Shown in pieces: positions 9,545-46,818 of a stretch of DNA of 64,000 bases. How positions within the stretch are numbered: position 1 is the first letter of the stretch; each line of letters opens with the position of its first letter. A program made the translations under genes and the position numbers. This stretch comes from Burkholderiales bacterium (GTDB lineage Bacteria > Pseudomonadota > Gammaproteobacteria > Burkholderiales > JBILQJ01), in assembly GCA_044373325.1 (NCBI GenBank), contig JBILQJ010000004.1, positions 10,115 through 74,114 on the forward strand. The letters are read 5' to 3'. Under the pieces are notes generated by a model. It did no database searches. It was not told the origin of the DNA and saw nothing but the letters and a program-made list of their open reading frames with translations.

Positions 9545-11344
9545 TTATTGGCATGCTAGACACTCATCATTTTCGATTAACTTGTGTAGGTCGATGGCCT
9601 CTTCTATTTTTTCTCTTACTATTTGTTGTCCAACGCGATCGGCTTTTCTAAGCTTATCGCTGCGACAATAATAAAGAGACTTAAGCCCTTTTTTCCAAGC
9701 CTGAAAATGAATGGCATGTAAGTATTTGATGTGGACATCAGGACGAAAAAACACATTGACGCTTTGACCTTGATCAATAAACGCTTGCCTATCCCCTGCT
9801 AATTCGATGATCCAGCGTTGATCGATTTCTACGGCTGTTTTGTAGATGTCTTTGGTTGCCTGATCCAACCAGGCTAAATGTGACACTGAGCCATCATGCG
9901 CAATAATAGAAGCCCACACTTCGTCGATGTCGATTTGCAATTCATCGCATTTCTTGTTGAGTATCTTTTCAAGAAAACGATTTTTATAGACCGATGCACC
10001 TGACAGCGTGTCTTGCCGAAAAACATTGGCACGATAGGGCTCTATGCTCGGAGACGTGTTACCCATAATTAAAGAAGAAGACGCATTGGGCGCGATGCTG
10101 GTCGTGTGAGAGAAACGGAGTGTTAATCCTGATTTTTCAGCATCTGGGCATGCCCCACGCGCCTGTGCAAGCGCTACATTGGCGATATCCATTTTTTCTT
10201 TGATGTGTTTGAAGAGCTTTATGTTGATTGATTTAGCAAGCGCACTTTCAAAAGGCACGCCTGATTTTTGTAGGTAAGCATGAAACCCCAGTGCGCCCAC
10301 ACCAATTGAGCGTTCTTGTTGCGCAGAGAACTTTGCTCGGCTGATGGCATCAGGCGCATTATCAATAAAATACTGCAAGACATTATCGAGCATTTCCGCA
10401 ACGTCTTTGATGAACAGCTGATTCGTTTTCCAGTCTTCAAAATATTCCAAATTTAATGAAGAAAGGCAACATACGGCGGTTCTTTCTTTGTTGGTTGGTA
10501 AAAAGATTTCTGTGCAAAGATTTGAACCATTGATTTTTAATCCCAGATTTTTTAAATGCTGCGGCAGTGCATGATTTGCGCTATCAATAAAACACAAATA
10601 GGGTTCACCTGTTTGGATGCGCATTTCAATAATGCGCTGCCATAAGGCTTTTGCCGATACCGTTTCGCGTATGACACCCGTTTTTGCATCACGTAAATGC
10701 CAGCTGTCGTCCGTGTTTGGTTGCAGCATGCATCGTTCGATAATGGACATGAAATCGTCAGTCACGTTAATGCCATGATGAAGATTGGTGCAGCGCATAT
10801 TTTGATCGCCTGTCGGTTTGCGCATTTCTAAAAACTGGATGATGTCGGGATGGTTAATATCAAGGTAAGCGGCATATGAGCCACGGCGCGTGTTCCCTTG
10901 GCGATAGGCTAAAGAGGACGCATCATAAATTTTTAAGTGCGGCATGATGCCCGTTGATTTCGAATCGGCTGCCCGTATCCCCAAATGTATTCCCACGCCA
11001 CCACCAAGCATGGACAGCCAGTTGGTTTCGCTAAGCGCATCCACCAAGCCCTCTGCGGAATCGTCGATAAAATTCAGAAAACAAGAAATCGGCAAGCCTT
11101 TTTGCGAACGACCAAAAGAAAGAATCGGCGTAGAGTAGCTTAGCCAATGTTTAGAAGCATACTCATACAAGCGTTGAGCGTGAGCTAAGTTGCTGCTAAA
11201 TTGTTGTGAGACAAACGCAAAACGTTCTTGAGGCGATGTTTCTTCTTCTAGCATATAAGATTCTTTGAGTCTTTTATAACCCAATTCATCAAACAGACGG
11301 TCTCTATCAAAATCAATATGAATGCCATTATTTAATTTCATCAT
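9545..11344 (-). CDS. nrdA: class I ribonucleotide reductase alpha subunit, short form without N-terminal ATP-cone
   Basis: 599 aa with the catalytic GSNLCTEI loop and a C-terminal redox pair CLAC. There is no ATP-cone-like N-terminus. Confidence 0.8.
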   Translation of the reverse strand: MMKLNNGIHIDFDRDRLFDELGYKRLKESYMLEEETSPQERFAFVSQQFSSNLAHAQRLYEYASKHWLSYSTPILSFGRSQKGLPISCFLNFIDDSAEGLVDALSETNWLSMLGGGVGIHLGIRAADSKSTGIMPHLKIYDASSLAYRQGNTRRGSYAAYLDINHPDIIQFLEMRKPTGDQNMRCTNLHHGINVTDDFMSIIERCMLQPNTDDSWHLRDAKTGVIRETVSAKALWQRIIEMRIQTGEPYLCFIDSANHALPQHLKNLGLKINGSNLCTEIFLPTNKERTAVCCLSSLNLEYFEDWKTNQLFIKDVAEMLDNVLQYFIDNAPDAISRAKFSAQQERSIGVGALGFHAYLQKSGVPFESALAKSINIKLFKHIKEKMDIANVALAQARGACPDAEKSGLTLRFSHTTSIAPNASSSLIMGNTSPSIEPYRANVFRQDTLSGASVYKNRFLEKILNKKCDELQIDIDEVWASIIAHDGSVSHLAWLDQATKDIYKTAVEIDQRWIIELAGDRQAFIDQGQSVNVFFRPDVHIKYLHAIHFQAWKKGLKSLYYCRSDKLRKADRVGQQIVREKIEEAIDLHKLIENDECLACQ

Positions 11345-40100: not shown

Positions 40101-40126
40101 GATTTTGGCAATTTGCAAAGATGAGA

Positions 40127-40180
40127 GAAAATAAATAAATAAATGAATAAATGAATAAATGAATAAATGAATAAATAAAA
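40127..40180. repeat. AT-rich octamer tandem repeat (AATAAATG)x4-5 with degenerate flanks
   Basis: aaaataaataaataaatgaataaatgaataaatgaataaatgaataaataaaa. Confidence 0.8.
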
Positions 40181-40287
40181 ACCGCCGAGTCTCTAAGACG
40201 AAGGGCGGTTTTTTATTTTTTGTATCTTTTCACTAACGTGAATCAACTTGTTATCGAGAGACACACATTTTCTAATTTGCTAATAAG
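40176..40287 (-). ncRNA. predicted tracrRNA (ends approximate)
   Basis: Plus-strand 40264-40279 (cacattttctaatttg) is identical to 16 nt of the CRISPR repeat, so the minus-strand RNA carries the anti-repeat. Partial complementarity continues to the repeat 5' end (GTT, CGA). Downstream on the minus strand are the hairpin TTCAC-GTTA-GTGAA (40229-40242) and an intrinsic terminator ACCGCC...GGCGGT + TTTTT (40176-40209). A sigma70-like promoter lies upstream. Confidence 0.7.
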
Positions 40288-40292
40288 TTTGT

Positions 40293-40321
40293 ATTCTAAA
40301 TTTTATTTTATTGGCCGTCAA
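40293..40321 (-). promoter_or_regulatory. predicted tracrRNA promoter: TTGACG - 17 nt - TAGAAT
   Basis: The minus strand reads TTGACGgccaataaaataaaattTAGAATacaaact. The -35 is the complement of 40316-40321 and the -10 the complement of 40293-40298. Confidence 0.6.
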
Positions 40322-40405: not shown

Positions 40406-43400
40406 ATGAAAAAATTGAAAAAGCCGATGATTTACCGTTTGGGTTTGGATTTGGGGGCGACTTCCATCGGTTGGGCGATAGTGCGCCTCAATCAACCAAA
40501 AGTGGCCGAAACGGCGCAGGCGCATGAAGCTGTAGCGCAGGGCAAATTGAAACCGAGTTCTATCGTAACGATGGGCGTGCGCTTGTTTCCTGATGGCCGC
40601 ACTGATAAAGACAAAACGTCTTTGGCGGTGGCGCGTCGTTTGGCTCGGGGCGCCAGACGGCGGCGCGATCGGGTAATTGCGCGTAAAAACAGGTTGCTGG
40701 ACGCTTTAATGGTGGCGGGTTTTATGCCCAGCATTGCCGAGACGGAGGCGCGGCGCGAGTTGGTGGACATGAATCCGTATGAGATTCGGGCGCGTGCTTT
40801 GAATGAAGCGGTACATCCGCATGAAATTGGCCGTGCGATTTTTCACATGGCGGTGCGCCGTGGGTTTAAGAGCAATCGCAAGTCGGACAAATCCAACACC
40901 GACACGGGCAATTTAAAGCAAGCCATTTTTAAAACTCGGCAGGCTATTGCTGATTTGGGGATGCGTACTTTGGGCGAATGGTTGGCCGCAAAATATGAGT
41001 TACATGCCAAGGGCGAATTTTTGCGCAATCGCGACATAAAAGCCGACAATGCCAAACCCAACGCCAAAAAAGAATATCGTTTGTATATCGACCGCCAAAT
41101 GATAGAAGATGAGTTTGATTTAATTTGGGCAACACAAGCAGGCTTTGCGCCTGCGGTTTATACGGCGGAATTGGGTCACAAACTGAAAGATGTGTTGTTG
41201 TTTCAGCGGCCATTAAAGTCGAAAAAAGGCGAGGTTGGGCGCTGTACCTTAGAACCAGAAGAACCGCGCGCGGCTTTGGCTTTGCCTTCGGTGCAACAAT
41301 TTCGCATTTACCAAGAGCTGAATCATTTGCGCATTAAAGGTTCGGCACGGATTAACGAGGCAGATCGGGCGTTGACTTTGGCCGAGCGTGATGCTTTGGC
41401 GGCCATGCTAGAAAAAACCGACAAGTTGAGCCTGACGGCTTTGAAAAAGGCCTTGGGTTTGTCTTCGGCGGCAGAATTGTCTATAGAGTCGAGCCGCAAA
41501 GAGTTGCGCGGCAATGCGACCAGCATTAAATTGGCGTCGCCTGCGTGTTTTGGCGCGGCTTGGCATGGCTTGGATTTGGCGGTGCAAGATGCTTTGGTGA
41601 ACGCGATGATAGAAGCGCAAGACGATGCGGCCTTATTGGCCGAATTGCGCGAAGGTTGGCCGCAGCTTATGCAAGGGTTAAGCGCCGAACAAGAACAAGC
41701 CGTTGTGGATGCGGTGTTGCCTGACGGGTATGGCAAATTGTCGAGCAAAGCCTTGGCGACGGTTTTGCCAGCCTTAAAATCAGACGTGATGACTTACGAC
41801 AAAGCGGTGTTGGCGGGCGGTTACGACCATCACAGCCAAGTCGGCGGCGTGTACGAAACGGGCGAGGTCAATATGCCTGAATTGCCGTATTACGGCCAAC
41901 CTTTGCGCCGTCACGTGTCGTTTGGTACGGGCAAAGTGGGCGATGCGGACGAAATTCGCTATGGCAAAATTGGCAATCCCACCGTGCATATCGGCTTGAA
42001 TCAATTGCGTAAAGTGGTGAATGCCATCATTAAAAAATACGGCAATCCGACCGAAATTGTGGTGGAAGTGGCGCGGGATTTGAAGTTGAGCCAAAAGAAA
42101 ATAGACGAACTCAACAAAGAAAACCGCGAAAACGAAAAGAAAAACGAGGCCTATCGTCAAGAAATTGTGGGCGCTGGCTTAACGCCCAGCTCGCATTATT
42201 TGCAAAAAGTGCGGTTGTGGCACGCGTTAAGCGCTACGCCAGCCAACCGCAAATGCGTGTTTACAGGCCGTGCGATGGCTTTGCACGACGTGTTGAGCAA
42301 TGCCACGGAAATTGAGCATTTGTTGCCGTATTCTAGAACGTTGGACGACACGCGCGCCAACAAGACCATTTGTTTTGTGGAGGCCAATCGCATTAAGGGC
42401 GACCGTTCGCCGTGGGAAGCCTTTGGCGAGCGCAAGGTGGCGGGTTATGACTGGGCGGACATTTTGGCGCGTGCGGCCAACTTTGCAAACAAACGCACGC
42501 GCGACCGTTTTGCCGAAGACGCGATGGCCAAGTTTAATGACGAAAACGAATTTTTGGCGCGCGCCTTAAACGACACGGCGTATTTGTCGAAAATGGCCAA
42601 AGAGTATTTGATGTGCGTGGTGCCTAAGCCTGAAAATGTGCGCGTGATCCCTGGGCAAATGACCGAAAAAATCCGCCGTGCCTTGGGCTTGAATCAAGTG
42701 TTGGTGGATTTGGGCGATGAAGCGCGGAAGTTGGCCGCAGCCCAAGGCGCGACTTTAGAAGAGGGCGAAGACGGCGAGGGCGCCAACCTTGCGGCCAACC
42801 TTGAATCGGATACAAACGCCGAACCAGCAGACGACAAGGCCGAAGCAGCCCCCGAAACCGAAGCAGAAAAAGCGCGCAAAGGCGAAGTGGCTGCCGAAAA
42901 AAATCGCAACGATCACCGTCATCACGCCATTGATGCTTTGGTGGTGGCCTTGACCGATCAAGGTTTGTTGGCCAGCTTTCAGCGCGAAAGTAAATACCAA
43001 CAGCATTACGCTCAAAAATCGGTGGTGGCGCGCAAAATGCGGCCGCCGTTTCCCGAGGTGGACAAACACGGCGTGATGTTAAACGATGCCGAATGCCGCC
43101 AAGCCTTCCGCGCGCGCGTCAAAGAAAAAGTCGCCCAAATCACGGTCAGCCACAAACGCGATCATGGGTATCAAGGGCAAATGATGGAAGAAACCTCTTG
43201 GTCGCCCAAAGACAAGCGCGGCAACGTGGCCATTGCGTTTAGCCCCAAAAAAGGCAATCGCTTTAAAACCCACGACAGGCAACGGCTGGACGAGAGCGGC
43301 CAACCTTTGGCGTTTAAAAAATACGTGGGCGGCAGCAATTACGCCATAGAAATCACCGCCACGCTGGACAAAAAAGGCCAACCCAAATGGGAAGGCACGG

Positions 43401-43828
43401 TTTTAAGCACGTATGACGCGTACAAAATCGTGCAAAAAGGCCGCGCCGCTGGCCTCAGCTTGGCCGAAGCCGAAAAAGGCTTGCGTCACCCCACCCTAGC
43501 GCAAAATGGCCAGCCCTTGGTCATGCGCCTTATGATTAACGATGTGGTGGCCATGAACACGGCCAGTGGGCGGTGTTTGTATCGGGTGGTGAAAATGGCA
43601 TCAACAGGAACGATTAGTTTTACGCCTTTGCATGAGGCCAATGTGAATGCTCGTGACATTGCCCGTAACAATTACAACAAAGACCTCAAAGCAGGCAAAG
43701 ACGTGAGTGGCCTAGACCCCAGTTTGCATATTGCCTATGTTTTTAAAACGGCCAGTTCTTTGCAAAAAGCAGGGGCGCGTGTGGTAAGTGTGTCGCCCAT
43801 AGGGGACGTGCAGTATTTGAAGGGATAA
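40406..43828 (+). CDS. cas9: Cas9, type II-C
   Basis: 1140 aa. RuvC-I YRLGLDLGATSIGWA (Asp codon 40448-40450); Arg-rich bridge helix ARRLARGARRRRDRVIARKNRL; RuvC-II EIVVEVARD; HNH EIEHLLPYSRTLDDTRANKTICFVEANRIKGDRSP (His codon 42317-42319); RuvC-III NDHRHHAIDALV. RBS AGAGGAG lies 5 nt upstream. No csn2 or cas4 is in the locus. Confidence 0.95.
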   Translation: MKKLKKPMIYRLGLDLGATSIGWAIVRLNQPKVAETAQAHEAVAQGKLKPSSIVTMGVRLFPDGRTDKDKTSLAVARRLARGARRRRDRVIARKNRLLDALMVAGFMPSIAETEARRELVDMNPYEIRARALNEAVHPHEIGRAIFHMAVRRGFKSNRKSDKSNTDTGNLKQAIFKTRQAIADLGMRTLGEWLAAKYELHAKGEFLRNRDIKADNAKPNAKKEYRLYIDRQMIEDEFDLIWATQAGFAPAVYTAELGHKLKDVLLFQRPLKSKKGEVGRCTLEPEEPRAALALPSVQQFRIYQELNHLRIKGSARINEADRALTLAERDALAAMLEKTDKLSLTALKKALGLSSAAELSIESSRKELRGNATSIKLASPACFGAAWHGLDLAVQDALVNAMIEAQDDAALLAELREGWPQLMQGLSAEQEQAVVDAVLPDGYGKLSSKALATVLPALKSDVMTYDKAVLAGGYDHHSQVGGVYETGEVNMPELPYYGQPLRRHVSFGTGKVGDADEIRYGKIGNPTVHIGLNQLRKVVNAIIKKYGNPTEIVVEVARDLKLSQKKIDELNKENRENEKKNEAYRQEIVGAGLTPSSHYLQKVRLWHALSATPANRKCVFTGRAMALHDVLSNATEIEHLLPYSRTLDDTRANKTICFVEANRIKGDRSPWEAFGERKVAGYDWADILARAANFANKRTRDRFAEDAMAKFNDENEFLARALNDTAYLSKMAKEYLMCVVPKPENVRVIPGQMTEKIRRALGLNQVLVDLGDEARKLAAAQGATLEEGEDGEGANLAANLESDTNAEPADDKAEAAPETEAEKARKGEVAAEKNRNDHRHHAIDALVVALTDQGLLASFQRESKYQQHYAQKSVVARKMRPPFPEVDKHGVMLNDAECRQAFRARVKEKVAQITVSHKRDHGYQGQMMEETSWSPKDKRGNVAIAFSPKKGNRFKTHDRQRLDESGQPLAFKKYVGGSNYAIEITATLDKKGQPKWEGTVLSTYDAYKIVQKGRAAGLSLAEAEKGLRHPTLAQNGQPLVMRLMINDVVAMNTASGRCLYRVVKMASTGTISFTPLHEANVNARDIARNNYNKDLKAGKDVSGLDPSLHIAYVFKTASSLQKAGARVVSVSPIGDVQYLKG

Positions 43829-43878
43829 ACGCGCCACCGCGAGGGGTTTTCCCTAGTTAACCCTGCCGCGCAGCGGCA

Positions 43879-43922
43879 AGCGCCGTCTCGCTACCCCTTG
43901 GGGTGGCGAGACGGCGCTTTTT
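43879..43922 (+). terminator. strong rho-independent terminator of cas9, abutting CRISPR repeat 1
   Basis: agcgccgtctcgctacccc-tt-ggggtggcgagacggcgct followed by tttt, then the first repeat starts at 43923. Confidence 0.85.
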
Positions 43923-44557
43923 GTTCCGATTGGCTCACATTTTCTAATTTGTTATAATTAGAGTTCTACCATAAGTATCACGTTGTTAGTTCCGATTGGC
44001 TCACATTTTCTAATTTGTTATAATTAAACGACGACAGGGAAGCTTGGACTCGTATGTTCCGATTGGCTCACATTTTCTAATTTGTTATAATCATGATTTT
44101 TAATCCCTTTTTTGAGTGTTTGTTCCGATTGGCTCACATTTTCTAATTTGTTATAATTAAGTGTTTTTCCCAAATGTCTACCATGGTGGTTCCGATTGGC
44201 TCACATTTTCTAATTTGTTATAATCAAGGGCGTTTGCCCTTGTCAATACTTATTGTTCCGATTGGCTCACATTTTCTAATTTGTTATAATCACAAAGAAT
44301 GAAGGGTTATTGTATACATAGTTCCGATTGGCTCACATTTTCTAATTTGTTATAATTACAACCTATTAAGGCTTGTTATCTAAAACCGTTCCGATTGGCT
44401 CACATTTTCTAATTTGTTATAATTTAATGGCCAATAGTCTAAACATTGCGTACAGTTCCGATTGGCTCACATTTTCTAATTTGTTATAATTTTAATCAAA
44501 GGAGGCTTAAATGTCTGATATGTTCCGATTGGCTCACATTTTCTAATTTGTTATAAT
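43923..44557 (+). CRISPR. CRISPR array: 10 identical 36-bp repeats and 9 spacers of 30-31 bp
   Basis: Repeat is GTTCCGATTGGCTCACATTTTCTAATTTGTTATAAT, starting at 43923, 43989, 44056, 44122, 44189, 44255, 44321, 44388, 44455 and 44522. All spacers are unique. Orientation is inferred from the tracrRNA anti-repeat and the TGTTATAAT box at each repeat end. Confidence 0.97.
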
Positions 44558-44562
44558 TAGAT

Positions 44563-44604
44563 AACCCTGAAATCCTTGTTTAACAATGGTTACAGGGTTT
44601 TTCT
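44563..44604 (+). terminator. possible terminator after the last repeat
   Basis: aaccctg ... cagggtt followed by tttttc. The loop is long (about 23 nt), so the call is weak. Confidence 0.35.
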
Positions 44605-44621
44605 TTGCCAAAAAACCAGTT

Positions 44622-44660
44622 AAAAACGGCCCAATTTTCTTAAAATTTGGCCGTTTTTTT
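44622..44660. terminator. bidirectional hairpin terminator between the array and cas2
   Basis: aaaaacggcccaattttcttaaaatttggccgttttttt: stem ACGGCC(C)AATTTT/AAAATTTGGCCGT flanked by an A-run and a T-run. Confidence 0.6.
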
Positions 44661-44836: not shown

Positions 44837-45232
44837 TTAAAACAGCATGAGCTGATCGGGCTTGGCGAGGCGTTGACGCTGGCCACCGCGAAACGAACGG
44901 ATTTGGCCGTATTGTTTGTCGGTAAAGCACAGCACATCGACTTTGCCGCCCTCGGGCAAGGCCAGCTGAATTTTGTTGAGCAGACTCAAATAATGCGCTT
45001 TGCTGCCGCAGACGCGCATATAAACCGACAACTGCGCCATTTCAAAGCCCTGATCGAGCAAAGACAAGCGAAAAGCCTGCGCGTTTTTGCGTTCGGTTTT
45101 GGTCAGCGTGGGCAAATCAAACATCACCAATAGCCACATGATTCGGTACCCCGATAATAAAGTGTTGAGCGGATTGGACGGTGCCATATCGGCTGCGGCC
45201 AACCTTTTGATGGGTTTTAGGCGTTTACTCAT
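44837..45232 (-). CDS. cas2: Cas2 (type II)
   Basis: 131 aa with LSGYRIMWLLVMFDLPTLTKTERK... (beta1 with the conserved Asp). AGGAG RBS, and the start is 20 nt after the cas1 stop. The N-terminus is about 15 aa longer than usual (alternative start 45187). Confidence 0.9.
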   Translation of the reverse strand: MSKRLKPIKRLAAADMAPSNPLNTLLSGYRIMWLLVMFDLPTLTKTERKNAQAFRLSLLDQGFEMAQLSVYMRVCGSKAHYLSLLNKIQLALPEGGKVDVLCFTDKQYGQIRSFRGGQRQRLAKPDQLMLF

Positions 45233-45252: not shown

Positions 45253-46353
45253 TTACAACTCAAAATCGTCGTCTGACGGCTCGTCATCAAACGGCGTGCT
45301 GTCGGCCAAAGGGGGCGCATTGAACGCGCGATTGGCCGCGTAACCATTGGCGCGGTAAACGTTGGCCGCAAGGGGCAACAGCAGCTCGGTTTTTTCTTTG
45401 AGATAAACCTGCGCCAAACTGGAAGCCAAGCGCTGCATGGCCAAGGCCGCAGGACTTTTGCCATAAGGCATGACCACCGCGTGATCCAACACGTTGGCCA
45501 ACACGCGTTTGGCCGCTGGCGTTAAACAGGCTTGGGCTTGGGCGTGAGTCGTAAAATCTTGCCCCGAAGCGCGCGCCGTGTCGAGCAAAGACAGCGCCCG
45601 AAAATCCACCAAAGGCCGAAAGACTTCCATTAAATCGTCCACCAAGCGCATGGGATTGAGTTCGTGCCGATGAAATAAGCCCAAAGCAGGGTGCAAGCCC
45701 GCCGAACACACCGCCCGCGCCATGGCGCTGCGCAGTACCGTGTAGCCGTAATTTAAAAAAAGGTTGGCCGCAACATAAGGCGGATGCGCGTTGTATCCTT
45801 GGCGTTTAAAGCGGCCATCAGCCTTGCCGTCTTCCTCGCCCTGCACATCGCCCACGGAGGGAAACAACAGCCCCCAATACAAACGCGCCGCCGTGGCTTC
45901 CACATTGGTGACATCGCCCGATTGCACGCGCCCGACCAAAGCCAACACAGGCCGCACATCGCGACCCAAAGCGTCCAGTAAAGCCGCTTGCTGGCTGATT
46001 TTGGCTTTGACCAAGGCCGCCCACAGGCGCTTTTTTTGGGGTTGCGTCACCAATAACTGCGCCTCAAATCGCGCAGCCATGCTTTGATGTCCCGCCAAAG
46101 GCAACAGCTGGCTGATGGGCTGATGATGCCGATCGCACACCGTAAAAATGATGCCGTGTTCGGCAAACGCCACCAAGATGGTGTTGCTGTAAGTGATGCC
46201 GTAAGCGTGGGCAATCACGGCACTGATGTCGCTTAATGCCACGCGCCCCAATTCGTGCGTCACGCCTGCTTGCGTGCGCGTCAGCACCAAAAATCCTCGG
46301 TAACTTCTTAGATGAACGTGGTTTTCGCTGATGTCTATGATGCGATGCCTCAT
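45253..46353 (-). CDS. cas1: Cas1 (type II)
   Basis: 366 aa with NLFLNYGYTVLRSAMARAV and GLHPALGLFHRHELNPMRLVDDLMEVFRPLVD. It carries an extra Gly/Asp-rich insert and an acidic C-terminal tail (DDEPSDDDFEL). Confidence 0.9.
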   Translation of the reverse strand: MRHRIIDISENHVHLRSYRGFLVLTRTQAGVTHELGRVALSDISAVIAHAYGITYSNTILVAFAEHGIIFTVCDRHHQPISQLLPLAGHQSMAARFEAQLLVTQPQKKRLWAALVKAKISQQAALLDALGRDVRPVLALVGRVQSGDVTNVEATAARLYWGLLFPSVGDVQGEEDGKADGRFKRQGYNAHPPYVAANLFLNYGYTVLRSAMARAVCSAGLHPALGLFHRHELNPMRLVDDLMEVFRPLVDFRALSLLDTARASGQDFTTHAQAQACLTPAAKRVLANVLDHAVVMPYGKSPAALAMQRLASSLAQVYLKEKTELLLPLAANVYRANGYAANRAFNAPPLADSTPFDDEPSDDDFEL

Positions 46354-46440: not shown

Positions 46441-46818
46441 ACTTTGAAATTTAATGACTTAATCCATCACAAAAAGCGCCTTTGAACTCTGTAGACCAAA
46501 TCCCCTTTAGCGAGTCCGACTAACGTGGACGACGCGATAAACTCAATTTTGAATCTATCATTCAAAGCTTGGCGTGTTTGCTTTGGGTCGATTGATTGTT
46601 TGAGCGTCCGTCGGTCTCGCCCGACAGGCGACCTATTTTTTTGCGTCGCCAAAAAAACAGGACAAAAAGGCGAGCCCGCGCACGGGCGTGCAAAAATTCC
46701 GCGCCTGTTTTTAGAACACCCTTTAAAGGCACGTTCAGCGCTATTTTTTAGCACTGACTCAACCAAACACCTGCCAATAGTCATGGTGACTATGAAAAAC
46801 CTATTTGATTAAAAATCC

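Follow-up and report, generated by a model that had tools for sequence, protein, structure and literature searches.

The window, by which we mean the whole 64-kb stretch of DNA analysed here, contains a CRISPR-Cas locus made up of a predicted leftward tracrRNA, a rightward cas9, a rightward array, and leftward cas2 and cas1 genes, in that order (Table 1). We assigned the locus to subtype II-C because its adaptation genes are cas1 and cas2 only; searches of the locus ORFs with Pfam and TIGR profiles detected neither csn2 nor cas4. The flanking ORFs encode an IMPDH, an RNA methyltransferase, an ArsR-type regulator, a rhodanese, a metallo-beta-lactamase-fold protein and a DEAD-box helicase.

Table 1 Features of the locus and its surroundings, in window coordinates.
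Feature	Position	Strand	Remarks
Cobalamin riboswitch, RF00174	13554-13729	-	76 bits, E = 5e-17; only gathering-score Rfam match in the window
AT-rich short tandem repeat	40113-40170	-	TTATTCAT/TTATTTAT units; between tracrRNA and IMP dehydrogenase gene
tracrRNA (predicted)	40177-40288	-	~111 nt; anti-repeat 40283-40250, small nexus-like hairpin, terminator ~40210-40177
tracrRNA promoter (predicted)	40293-40321	-	TTGACG, 17 nt, TAGAAT; read from sequence
cas9	40406-43828	+	1140 aa; Pfam RuvC_III, HNH_4, Cas9_a; TIGR01865 577 bits (cut-off 100 bits)
12-mer TAGNTAACCCTG, first copy	43854-43865		57 nt upstream of repeat 1
Intrinsic terminator before array	43878-43922	+	19-bp stem, 13 G-C pairs, TTTTT; between cas9 stop and repeat 1
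CRISPR array	43923-44557	+	Ten identical 36-nt repeats, nine 30-31 nt spacers; predicted crRNA sense +
-35-like hexamer TTGGCT, repeat 1	43930-43935	+	17 nt before TATAAT; same in all repeats
Extended -10 element TGTTATAAT, repeat 1	43950-43958	+	Last 9 nt of the repeat
TGTTATAAT, repeats 2-6	44016-44024, 44083-44091, 44149-44157, 44216-44224, 44282-44290	+
TGTTATAAT, repeats 7-10	44348-44356, 44415-44423, 44482-44490, 44549-44557	+
First base (T) of 31-nt spacers 2, 4, 7, 8, 9	44025, 44158, 44357, 44424, 44491
12-mer TAGNTAACCCTG, second copy	44558-44569		Directly after repeat 10 (leader start)
Terminator T1	44563-44606	+	Hairpin AACCCUG...CAGGGUU (44563-44599), then U-run; -16.1 kcal/mol, z = -3.7
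Terminator T2	44622-44660	+	Hairpin CGGCCCAAUUUUCUUAAAAUUUGGCCG (44627-44653), then UUUUUUU; z ~ -3.7; before convergent cas2
cas2	44837-45232	-	131 aa; TIGR01573; PF09827 on the L083 orthologue; convergent with array
cas1	45253-46353	-	366 aa; type II, cas1_NMENI
ORF	46467-46784	-	105 aa; no family match

Gene order and tracrRNA

At 90% identity or more, the window Cas9 groups with a small number of sequences, one of them labelled Neisseriaceae bacterium. All other Cas9 homologues are 35-48% identical and come mostly from Burkholderiales. The protein is ~100 aa longer than its relatives and carries four lineage-specific insertions, at residues 33-48, 767-826, 883-898 and 1088-1105. The 60-aa insertion at 767-826 is acidic and of low complexity (VDLGDEARKLAAAQGATLEEGEDGEG...); it lies after the HNH domain (617-670) and within the span of Pfam RuvC_III (714-919).

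We compared the locus with related II-C loci from Burkholderiales and other Proteobacteria (L001-L080). These share with the window the 36-nt GTTCCGG...TAnAnT repeat frame, a tracrRNA just upstream of cas9 and divergent from it, and a GATAACCCC...GGGGTTTTT terminator after the last repeat. In contrast to the window, they run cas9-cas1-cas2-array and have the array reversed. The comparison points to an en-bloc inversion of cas1-cas2-array relative to cas9 in the window lineage, and this apparent inversion explains why cas9 now runs into the old array end.

In the predicted tracrRNA, the anti-repeat covers repeat nt 1-32 in a duplex with a 17-bp perfect core and a predicted energy of -32.2 kcal/mol, and repeat nt 33-36 lie outside this duplex. 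The predicted tracrRNA sequence is identical in the close relative L081. An Rfam search of the locus returned nothing at gathering score and only chance-level hits in an E-value scan, and the tracrRNA has no Rfam match. A second tracrRNA, either in the conserved stretch from the cas9 stop to the terminator or in the post-array hairpin, was considered and ruled out, as neither contains an anti-repeat. The L081 assembly breaks inside the AT-rich tandem repeat listed in Table 1.

Each repeat ends in a consensus extended -10 element

The first-pass annotation had described ten repeats and nine spacers, each repeat closing with TGnTATAAT, a consensus extended -10 element. Both statements proved accurate: the 36-nt repeat (GTTCCGATTGGCTCACATTTTCTAATTTGTTATAAT) is identical in 10/10 copies, and all ten end in this box. 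The array has a G+C content of 30-35%, compared to 48% for the window. We counted TGTTATAAT across the 64 kb and found ten copies, each forming the 3' end of a repeat, and none elsewhere, nor does the window contain a perfect extended -10 outside the repeats; dinucleotide shuffles of the window held 0.55 copies on average and three at most. Since the repeats are identical, the ten boxes amount to one observation, not ten. Based on the base composition of the repeat, we estimate the chance of TGnTATAAT at the exact repeat 3' end in the crRNA sense at ~1e-4, and that of its occurrence at any position of a 36-mer, both strands considered, at ~5e-3.

Upstream of the box, the hexamer TTGGCT, which the first-pass annotation had not mentioned, matches TTGACA at 4/6 positions, and in a consensus scan every repeat scores 10/12 plus the TG. 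By itself the -35-like hexamer is not significant (~0.1 for at least 4/6 at 16-18 nt spacing); related repeats lack it, and chance may account for it.

The 12-mer TAGNTAACCCTG is present in exactly two copies in the window, one on either side of the array. With one mismatch allowed, whole-window shuffles gave a mean of 0.35. The pair may be a leader-copy relic from a rearrangement, or a protein-binding site flanking the array.

Orientation of the array and targets of the spacers

Four independent lines of evidence, namely the anti-repeat, the alignment of family repeats, the protospacer flank and the terminators, agree in pointing to a crRNA that is plus-strand RNA. The anti-repeat is located on the minus strand and is complementary to plus-strand repeat RNA, in agreement with the earlier claim that the direction of the box matches that of the tracrRNA anti-repeat. 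Read in the plus sense, the repeat aligns with 54 distinct II-C repeats from related Cas9 loci in the frame GTT...TAnAnT. Leaving aside their first base, spacers 8 and 9 match IMG/VR viral contigs (L097-L099 and L101) at 30/30 positions; the two protospacers share a 3' CAATAA flank, with unrelated 5' flanks. The type II PAM lies 3' of the protospacer on the spacer-like strand. Sharing six flank bases has a chance probability of ~2e-4, and two protospacers are too few to define a PAM; moreover, for the PAM-side argument, both come from one group of related phage contigs. The terminators that follow the array are likewise on the plus strand.

These observations bear directly on the idea that the array is read from the minus strand and that the plus-strand box is irrelevant. 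We found no support for it: the consensus scan identified no promoter-like site on the minus strand within repeats, and two weak minus-strand sites, both inside spacers. The complementarity of the anti-repeat, the 3' position of the common flank, the strand of the post-array terminators and the sense in which the repeat aligns with its II-C relatives all oppose a minus-strand reading, which we regard as barely credible.

The exact IMG/VR scans took in spacers 1, 2, 6, 7, 8 and 9. In this small sample only the cas2-proximal spacers 8 and 9 matched, and spacers 1, 2, 6 and 7 had no exact IMG/VR match, a pattern in keeping with the insertion of new spacers at the end of the array that is transcribed last, beside cas2. 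Spacers 8 and 9 target one and the same viral contig, IMGVR_UViG_3300042342_000821 (L098), at 2440-2470 and 9609-9639. A BLAST search of all nine spacers against GenBank phages gave one weak match (25/27 nt, E = 0.5) to the coat protein gene of Moraxella phage Mcat32, the same search against PLSDB plasmids gave none, and no spacer matched the window itself with up to six mismatches. The sequence of spacer 9, which takes in a ribosome-binding site with its start codon (AAGGAGGCTTAAATG), is similar to the start of the coat protein gene in Mcat32.

Spacer length goes together with the first base. All five 31-nt spacers start with T, and three of the four 30-nt spacers start with C, the exception being spacer 1, which starts with T. 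The first leader base in the window (44558) is also a T, one that is missing from L083 and L100. Opposite the first T of spacers 8 and 9 the phage carries a C, the other 30 nt being identical, so the extra T seems to stem from the addition or duplication of a base where repeat and spacer meet, and not from the protospacer.

Terminators bound the array on both sides

The 97-nt region 3' of cas9 has a folding energy of -60.1 kcal/mol (z = -6.3), and the intrinsic terminator in it ends 3 nt before repeat 1. We examined this stem in L082 and L083, close relatives whose Cas9 is 96% identical or belongs to the same cluster of at least 90% identity. There, GTCTCGC/GCGAGAC is replaced by CGCATAGC/GCTATGCG through compensatory changes while the downstream repeat is identical, which indicates that the terminator structure is under selection. 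The consensus scan found no promoter-like site between this terminator and repeat 1, and with only 3 nt separating the two there is no room for a conventional leader promoter. The putative repeat promoters are the only evident source of plus-strand transcription across the spacers, unless the terminator leaks.

On the other side of the array, T1 starts 5 nt after repeat 10, so a transcript from the last repeat would be ~38 nt long and contain hardly anything besides the T1 hairpin with its U-tail. Both T1 and T2 are kept in L083, in L092 and in the more diverged L100, and a comparison of the three revealed compensatory changes in T1 (CCTTG/CAAGG to CTTTA/TAAGG). Among related loci, a crRNA-sense hairpin followed by a T-run lies within 150 nt past the last repeat in 39/61, compared to 6/61 in the antisense direction; a terminator upstream of the first repeat is found in 3/47 loci, the window included. 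As the loci are related, none of these counts is made up of independent cases. In relatives the post-array terminator typically sits ~12 nt past the last repeat (GATAACCCCTTGATT..CAAGGGGTTTTT). The counts show what appears to be a general feature of the clade, array transcription that emerges toward cas2 and is actively stopped. An array expressed as a single pre-crRNA should likewise have a terminator behind it.

The interior of the array has no terminator, and this modifies the earlier proposal that each spacer, as well as the sequence after repeat 10, forms its own transcription unit. A candidate promoter is present in every repeat, as that proposal requires. The units would be nested rather than separate, because transcripts initiated within the array should read through to the terminators after repeat 10.

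As a separate observation, the GATAACCCCTTGATT..CAAGGGGTTTTT terminator element overlaps the expected leader for spacer integration, and it goes without mention in the 2025 ecrRNA paper.

Conservation of the repeat 3' end among related loci

We next consider the 54 distinct related repeats. All of them start with GTT, and 50/54 with GTTCCG. Their last six positions read T (53), A (53), a variable base, A (53), C (44) or A (9), and T (53). The most conserved positions of the sigma-70 -10 element are -12T, -11A and -7T, and, given the counts just listed, these three are near-invariant across the 54 repeats. A TGn precedes the hexamer in 13/54 repeats, and the full TGnTATAAT occurs in the window only; TATAAT without the TG is found in L016, within the 54, and in the longer 37-nt repeat of L078. 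Most relatives have a much weaker hexamer: TAGACT or TAAACT is usual in L001-L080, and none of these loci has TGnTATAAT or a -35-like hexamer. Promoter strength has thus not been selected uniformly across the family.

Pairing with the tracrRNA does not account for the conservation of TAnAnT, since the tracrRNA can pair with hexamer positions 4-6 in only 9-25/52 loci, near the chance level of ~37%, and in the window the predicted duplex leaves out repeat nt 33-36. Promoter function would account for the conservation, as would recognition by Cas1-Cas2 at the leader-repeat junction, and the two roles may coexist.

Recognition by Cas1-Cas2 could also be taken as the main reason for conservation. 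The repeat 3' end would then be kept chiefly as an integrase recognition or cut site, its likeness to a -10 element would be a by-product, and the crRNAs would come from one long pre-crRNA produced by read-through of the cas9 terminator. In II-C systems new spacers enter at the last repeat, the 3' end of which abuts the leader (PMC12080349), and TAnAnT is kept even where the hexamer makes a poor -10, as in TAGACT, with C at -8 in 44/54 repeats. The extra initial T of the five 31-nt spacers is a sign of imprecise integration. However, a long precursor would have to pass the covarying 19-bp, 13 G-C terminator directly before repeat 1, with no promoter in between, and integration does not require a full TGnTATAAT with a correctly spaced -35-like hexamer. 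Weaker boxes work as promoters in N. meningitidis and C. jejuni, and serving the integrase is compatible with serving RNA polymerase. We consider it unlikely that integration is the main function and that the array is expressed as a single precursor.

A probable promoter in every repeat

Repeat-embedded promoters are already established for II-C systems. In N. meningitidis, according to later summaries of Zhang et al. 2013 (Mol Cell 50:488), crRNAs are transcribed from promoters within the repeats, start at the sixth spacer nucleotide and are functional without RNase III (PMC5965381, PMC12477760). The first-pass annotation had given the N. meningitidis box as TGCTACAAT and judged the window box to be nearer to consensus. 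The published repeat, GTTGTAGCTCCCTTTCTCATTTCGCAGTGCTACAAT (PMC12477760), confirms this box, and the comparison of hexamers (TATAAT vs TACAAT) bears out the judgement. The first-pass interpretation is supported by all the sequence evidence we gathered and extends the standard II-C model to one more locus. In C. jejuni, repeats end in GGTAAAAT, and dRNA-seq together with primer extension places primary 5' ends at spacer position 5; RNase III is needed there for maturation of the crRNA 3' end (PMC3656092), so RNase III-independent interference is not universal in II-C.

By analogy with these two systems, it is probable (we would put it at about 0.8) that every repeat in the window carries a functional sigma-70 promoter and that each crRNA is driven separately. 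The proposal builds on observed features, namely the sequence elements, their orientation, the terminators with their covariation, and the conservation within the family. Firing of the box, the positions of the start sites, and whether RNase III is needed or dispensable at this locus are what we infer from the analogy.

In the host, taken to be an uncultured Neisseriaceae bacterium from the label of one Cas9 cluster member, the promoter of each repeat would be built from TTGGCT and, after a 17-nt spacer containing the TG, the closing hexamer TATAAT. RNA polymerase would start ~5-8 nt into the following spacer and yield a crRNA that has a 5' triphosphate, a guide of ~23-25 nt and then the next repeat. 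This crRNA would pair with the tracrRNA, transcribed divergently from cas9, and then load into Cas9; its 3' end would be trimmed by RNase III, which would cut inside the 17-bp perfect core of the duplex. The terminator before repeat 1 would stop read-through from cas9 and thereby prevent extraneous crRNA from the spacer-less first, or 'extra', repeat. T1 and T2 would stop the array transcripts, including the ~38-nt product of the last repeat, before they run antisense into cas2-cas1.

It could also be that the promoters exist and that some of them are silent or weak in vivo, through occlusion or AT-rich silencing, so that expression would be uneven and in part due to read-through. The 66-67 bp repeat unit is shorter than the typical RNA polymerase promoter footprint, and the low G+C content of the array fits silencing. 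Yet the ten promoters are identical, so that differences could arise only through the spacer sequence near the start site, and all or most units are expressed in N. meningitidis and C. jejuni. Such partial silence strikes us as quite improbable.

Comparison with known II-C systems

The window differs from the known systems in degree and context: the box is consensus, the module is inverted and terminators stand at both ends. The N. meningitidis locus shares with it a 36-nt repeat that starts with GTT and ends in an extended -10 element (TGCTACAAT there, TGTTATAAT here), spacers of ~30 nt, a set of cas genes limited to cas9, cas1 and cas2, and the host family Neisseriaceae. In both, crRNA transcription is directed toward the cas2 3' end, and the last repeat and leader abut cas2. 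Unlike its N. meningitidis counterpart, the window -10 is a perfect TATAAT accompanied by a -35-like hexamer, and the predicted tracrRNA gene sits upstream of cas9 and points away from it. With cas1-cas2-array inverted as a block, cas9 faces the old array end across a strong terminator. The candidate PAM flank is CAATAA compared to N4GATT. The window Cas9 has Burkholderiales-type proteins (35-48% identity) as its nearest relatives outside its own cluster of at least 90% identity.

C. jejuni resembles the window in that a -10-like box (GGTAAAAT) ends each repeat and a primary transcript starts from about spacer position 5. It belongs to another phylum, its repeat promoters have no -35 element, and its gene order is the canonical cas9-cas1-cas2-array. 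The terminator before repeat 1 in the window matches a strategy reported from II-C arrays, in which a Rho-independent terminator precedes the extra repeat (PMC12080349).

The array is an unusually clean example of putative repeat-embedded promoters, and the mechanism is not new. What is particular to it is the sole perfect TGnTATAAT of the 54 family repeats and the order in which cas9 points into the array from one side while cas2 and cas1 face it from the other. It provides a textbook-quality case from a Cas9 lineage whose closest outside relatives are distant, at 35-48% identity. Given its length of 36 nt and its consensus promoter elements, a single repeat would make a convenient test piece for studying how RNA polymerase is shared among tandem promoters 66-67 bp apart. 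It also illustrates the insulation of a II-C array that runs in the same direction as cas9. Having a terminator ahead of the spacer-less first repeat agrees with the idea of ecrRNA suppression put forward by Feussner et al. 2025. To the current picture of II-C biology, which is unchanged, the family survey adds that TAnAnT is near-invariant without tracrRNA pairing as its cause, and that a crRNA-sense terminator past the last repeat is common.

More speculatively, after the inversion the lineage may have turned the array into a terminator-bounded cassette and brought the repeat to a complete sigma-70 consensus with -35-like hexamer, TG and TATAAT, unique among the 54. The ~38-nt hairpin RNA across the leader start (GATAACCC..., conserved family-wide) might then be more than a product of termination and serve, for instance, to mark or regulate the leader-repeat integration junction. 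We regard this combined scenario as a long shot.

One further occurrence of the repeat comes from L100 (metagenome contig Ga0214919_10089419, 1-500), the only contig with the repeat in a single metagenome scan. There the identical repeat stands as a single orphan copy; leader and terminators are the same as in the window, and no cas9 lies upstream. Next to the orphan repeat are toxin-antitoxin-like ORFs and a 43-nt tandem repeat in 6.6 copies, and L100 may represent a decayed or rearranged locus of a related strain.
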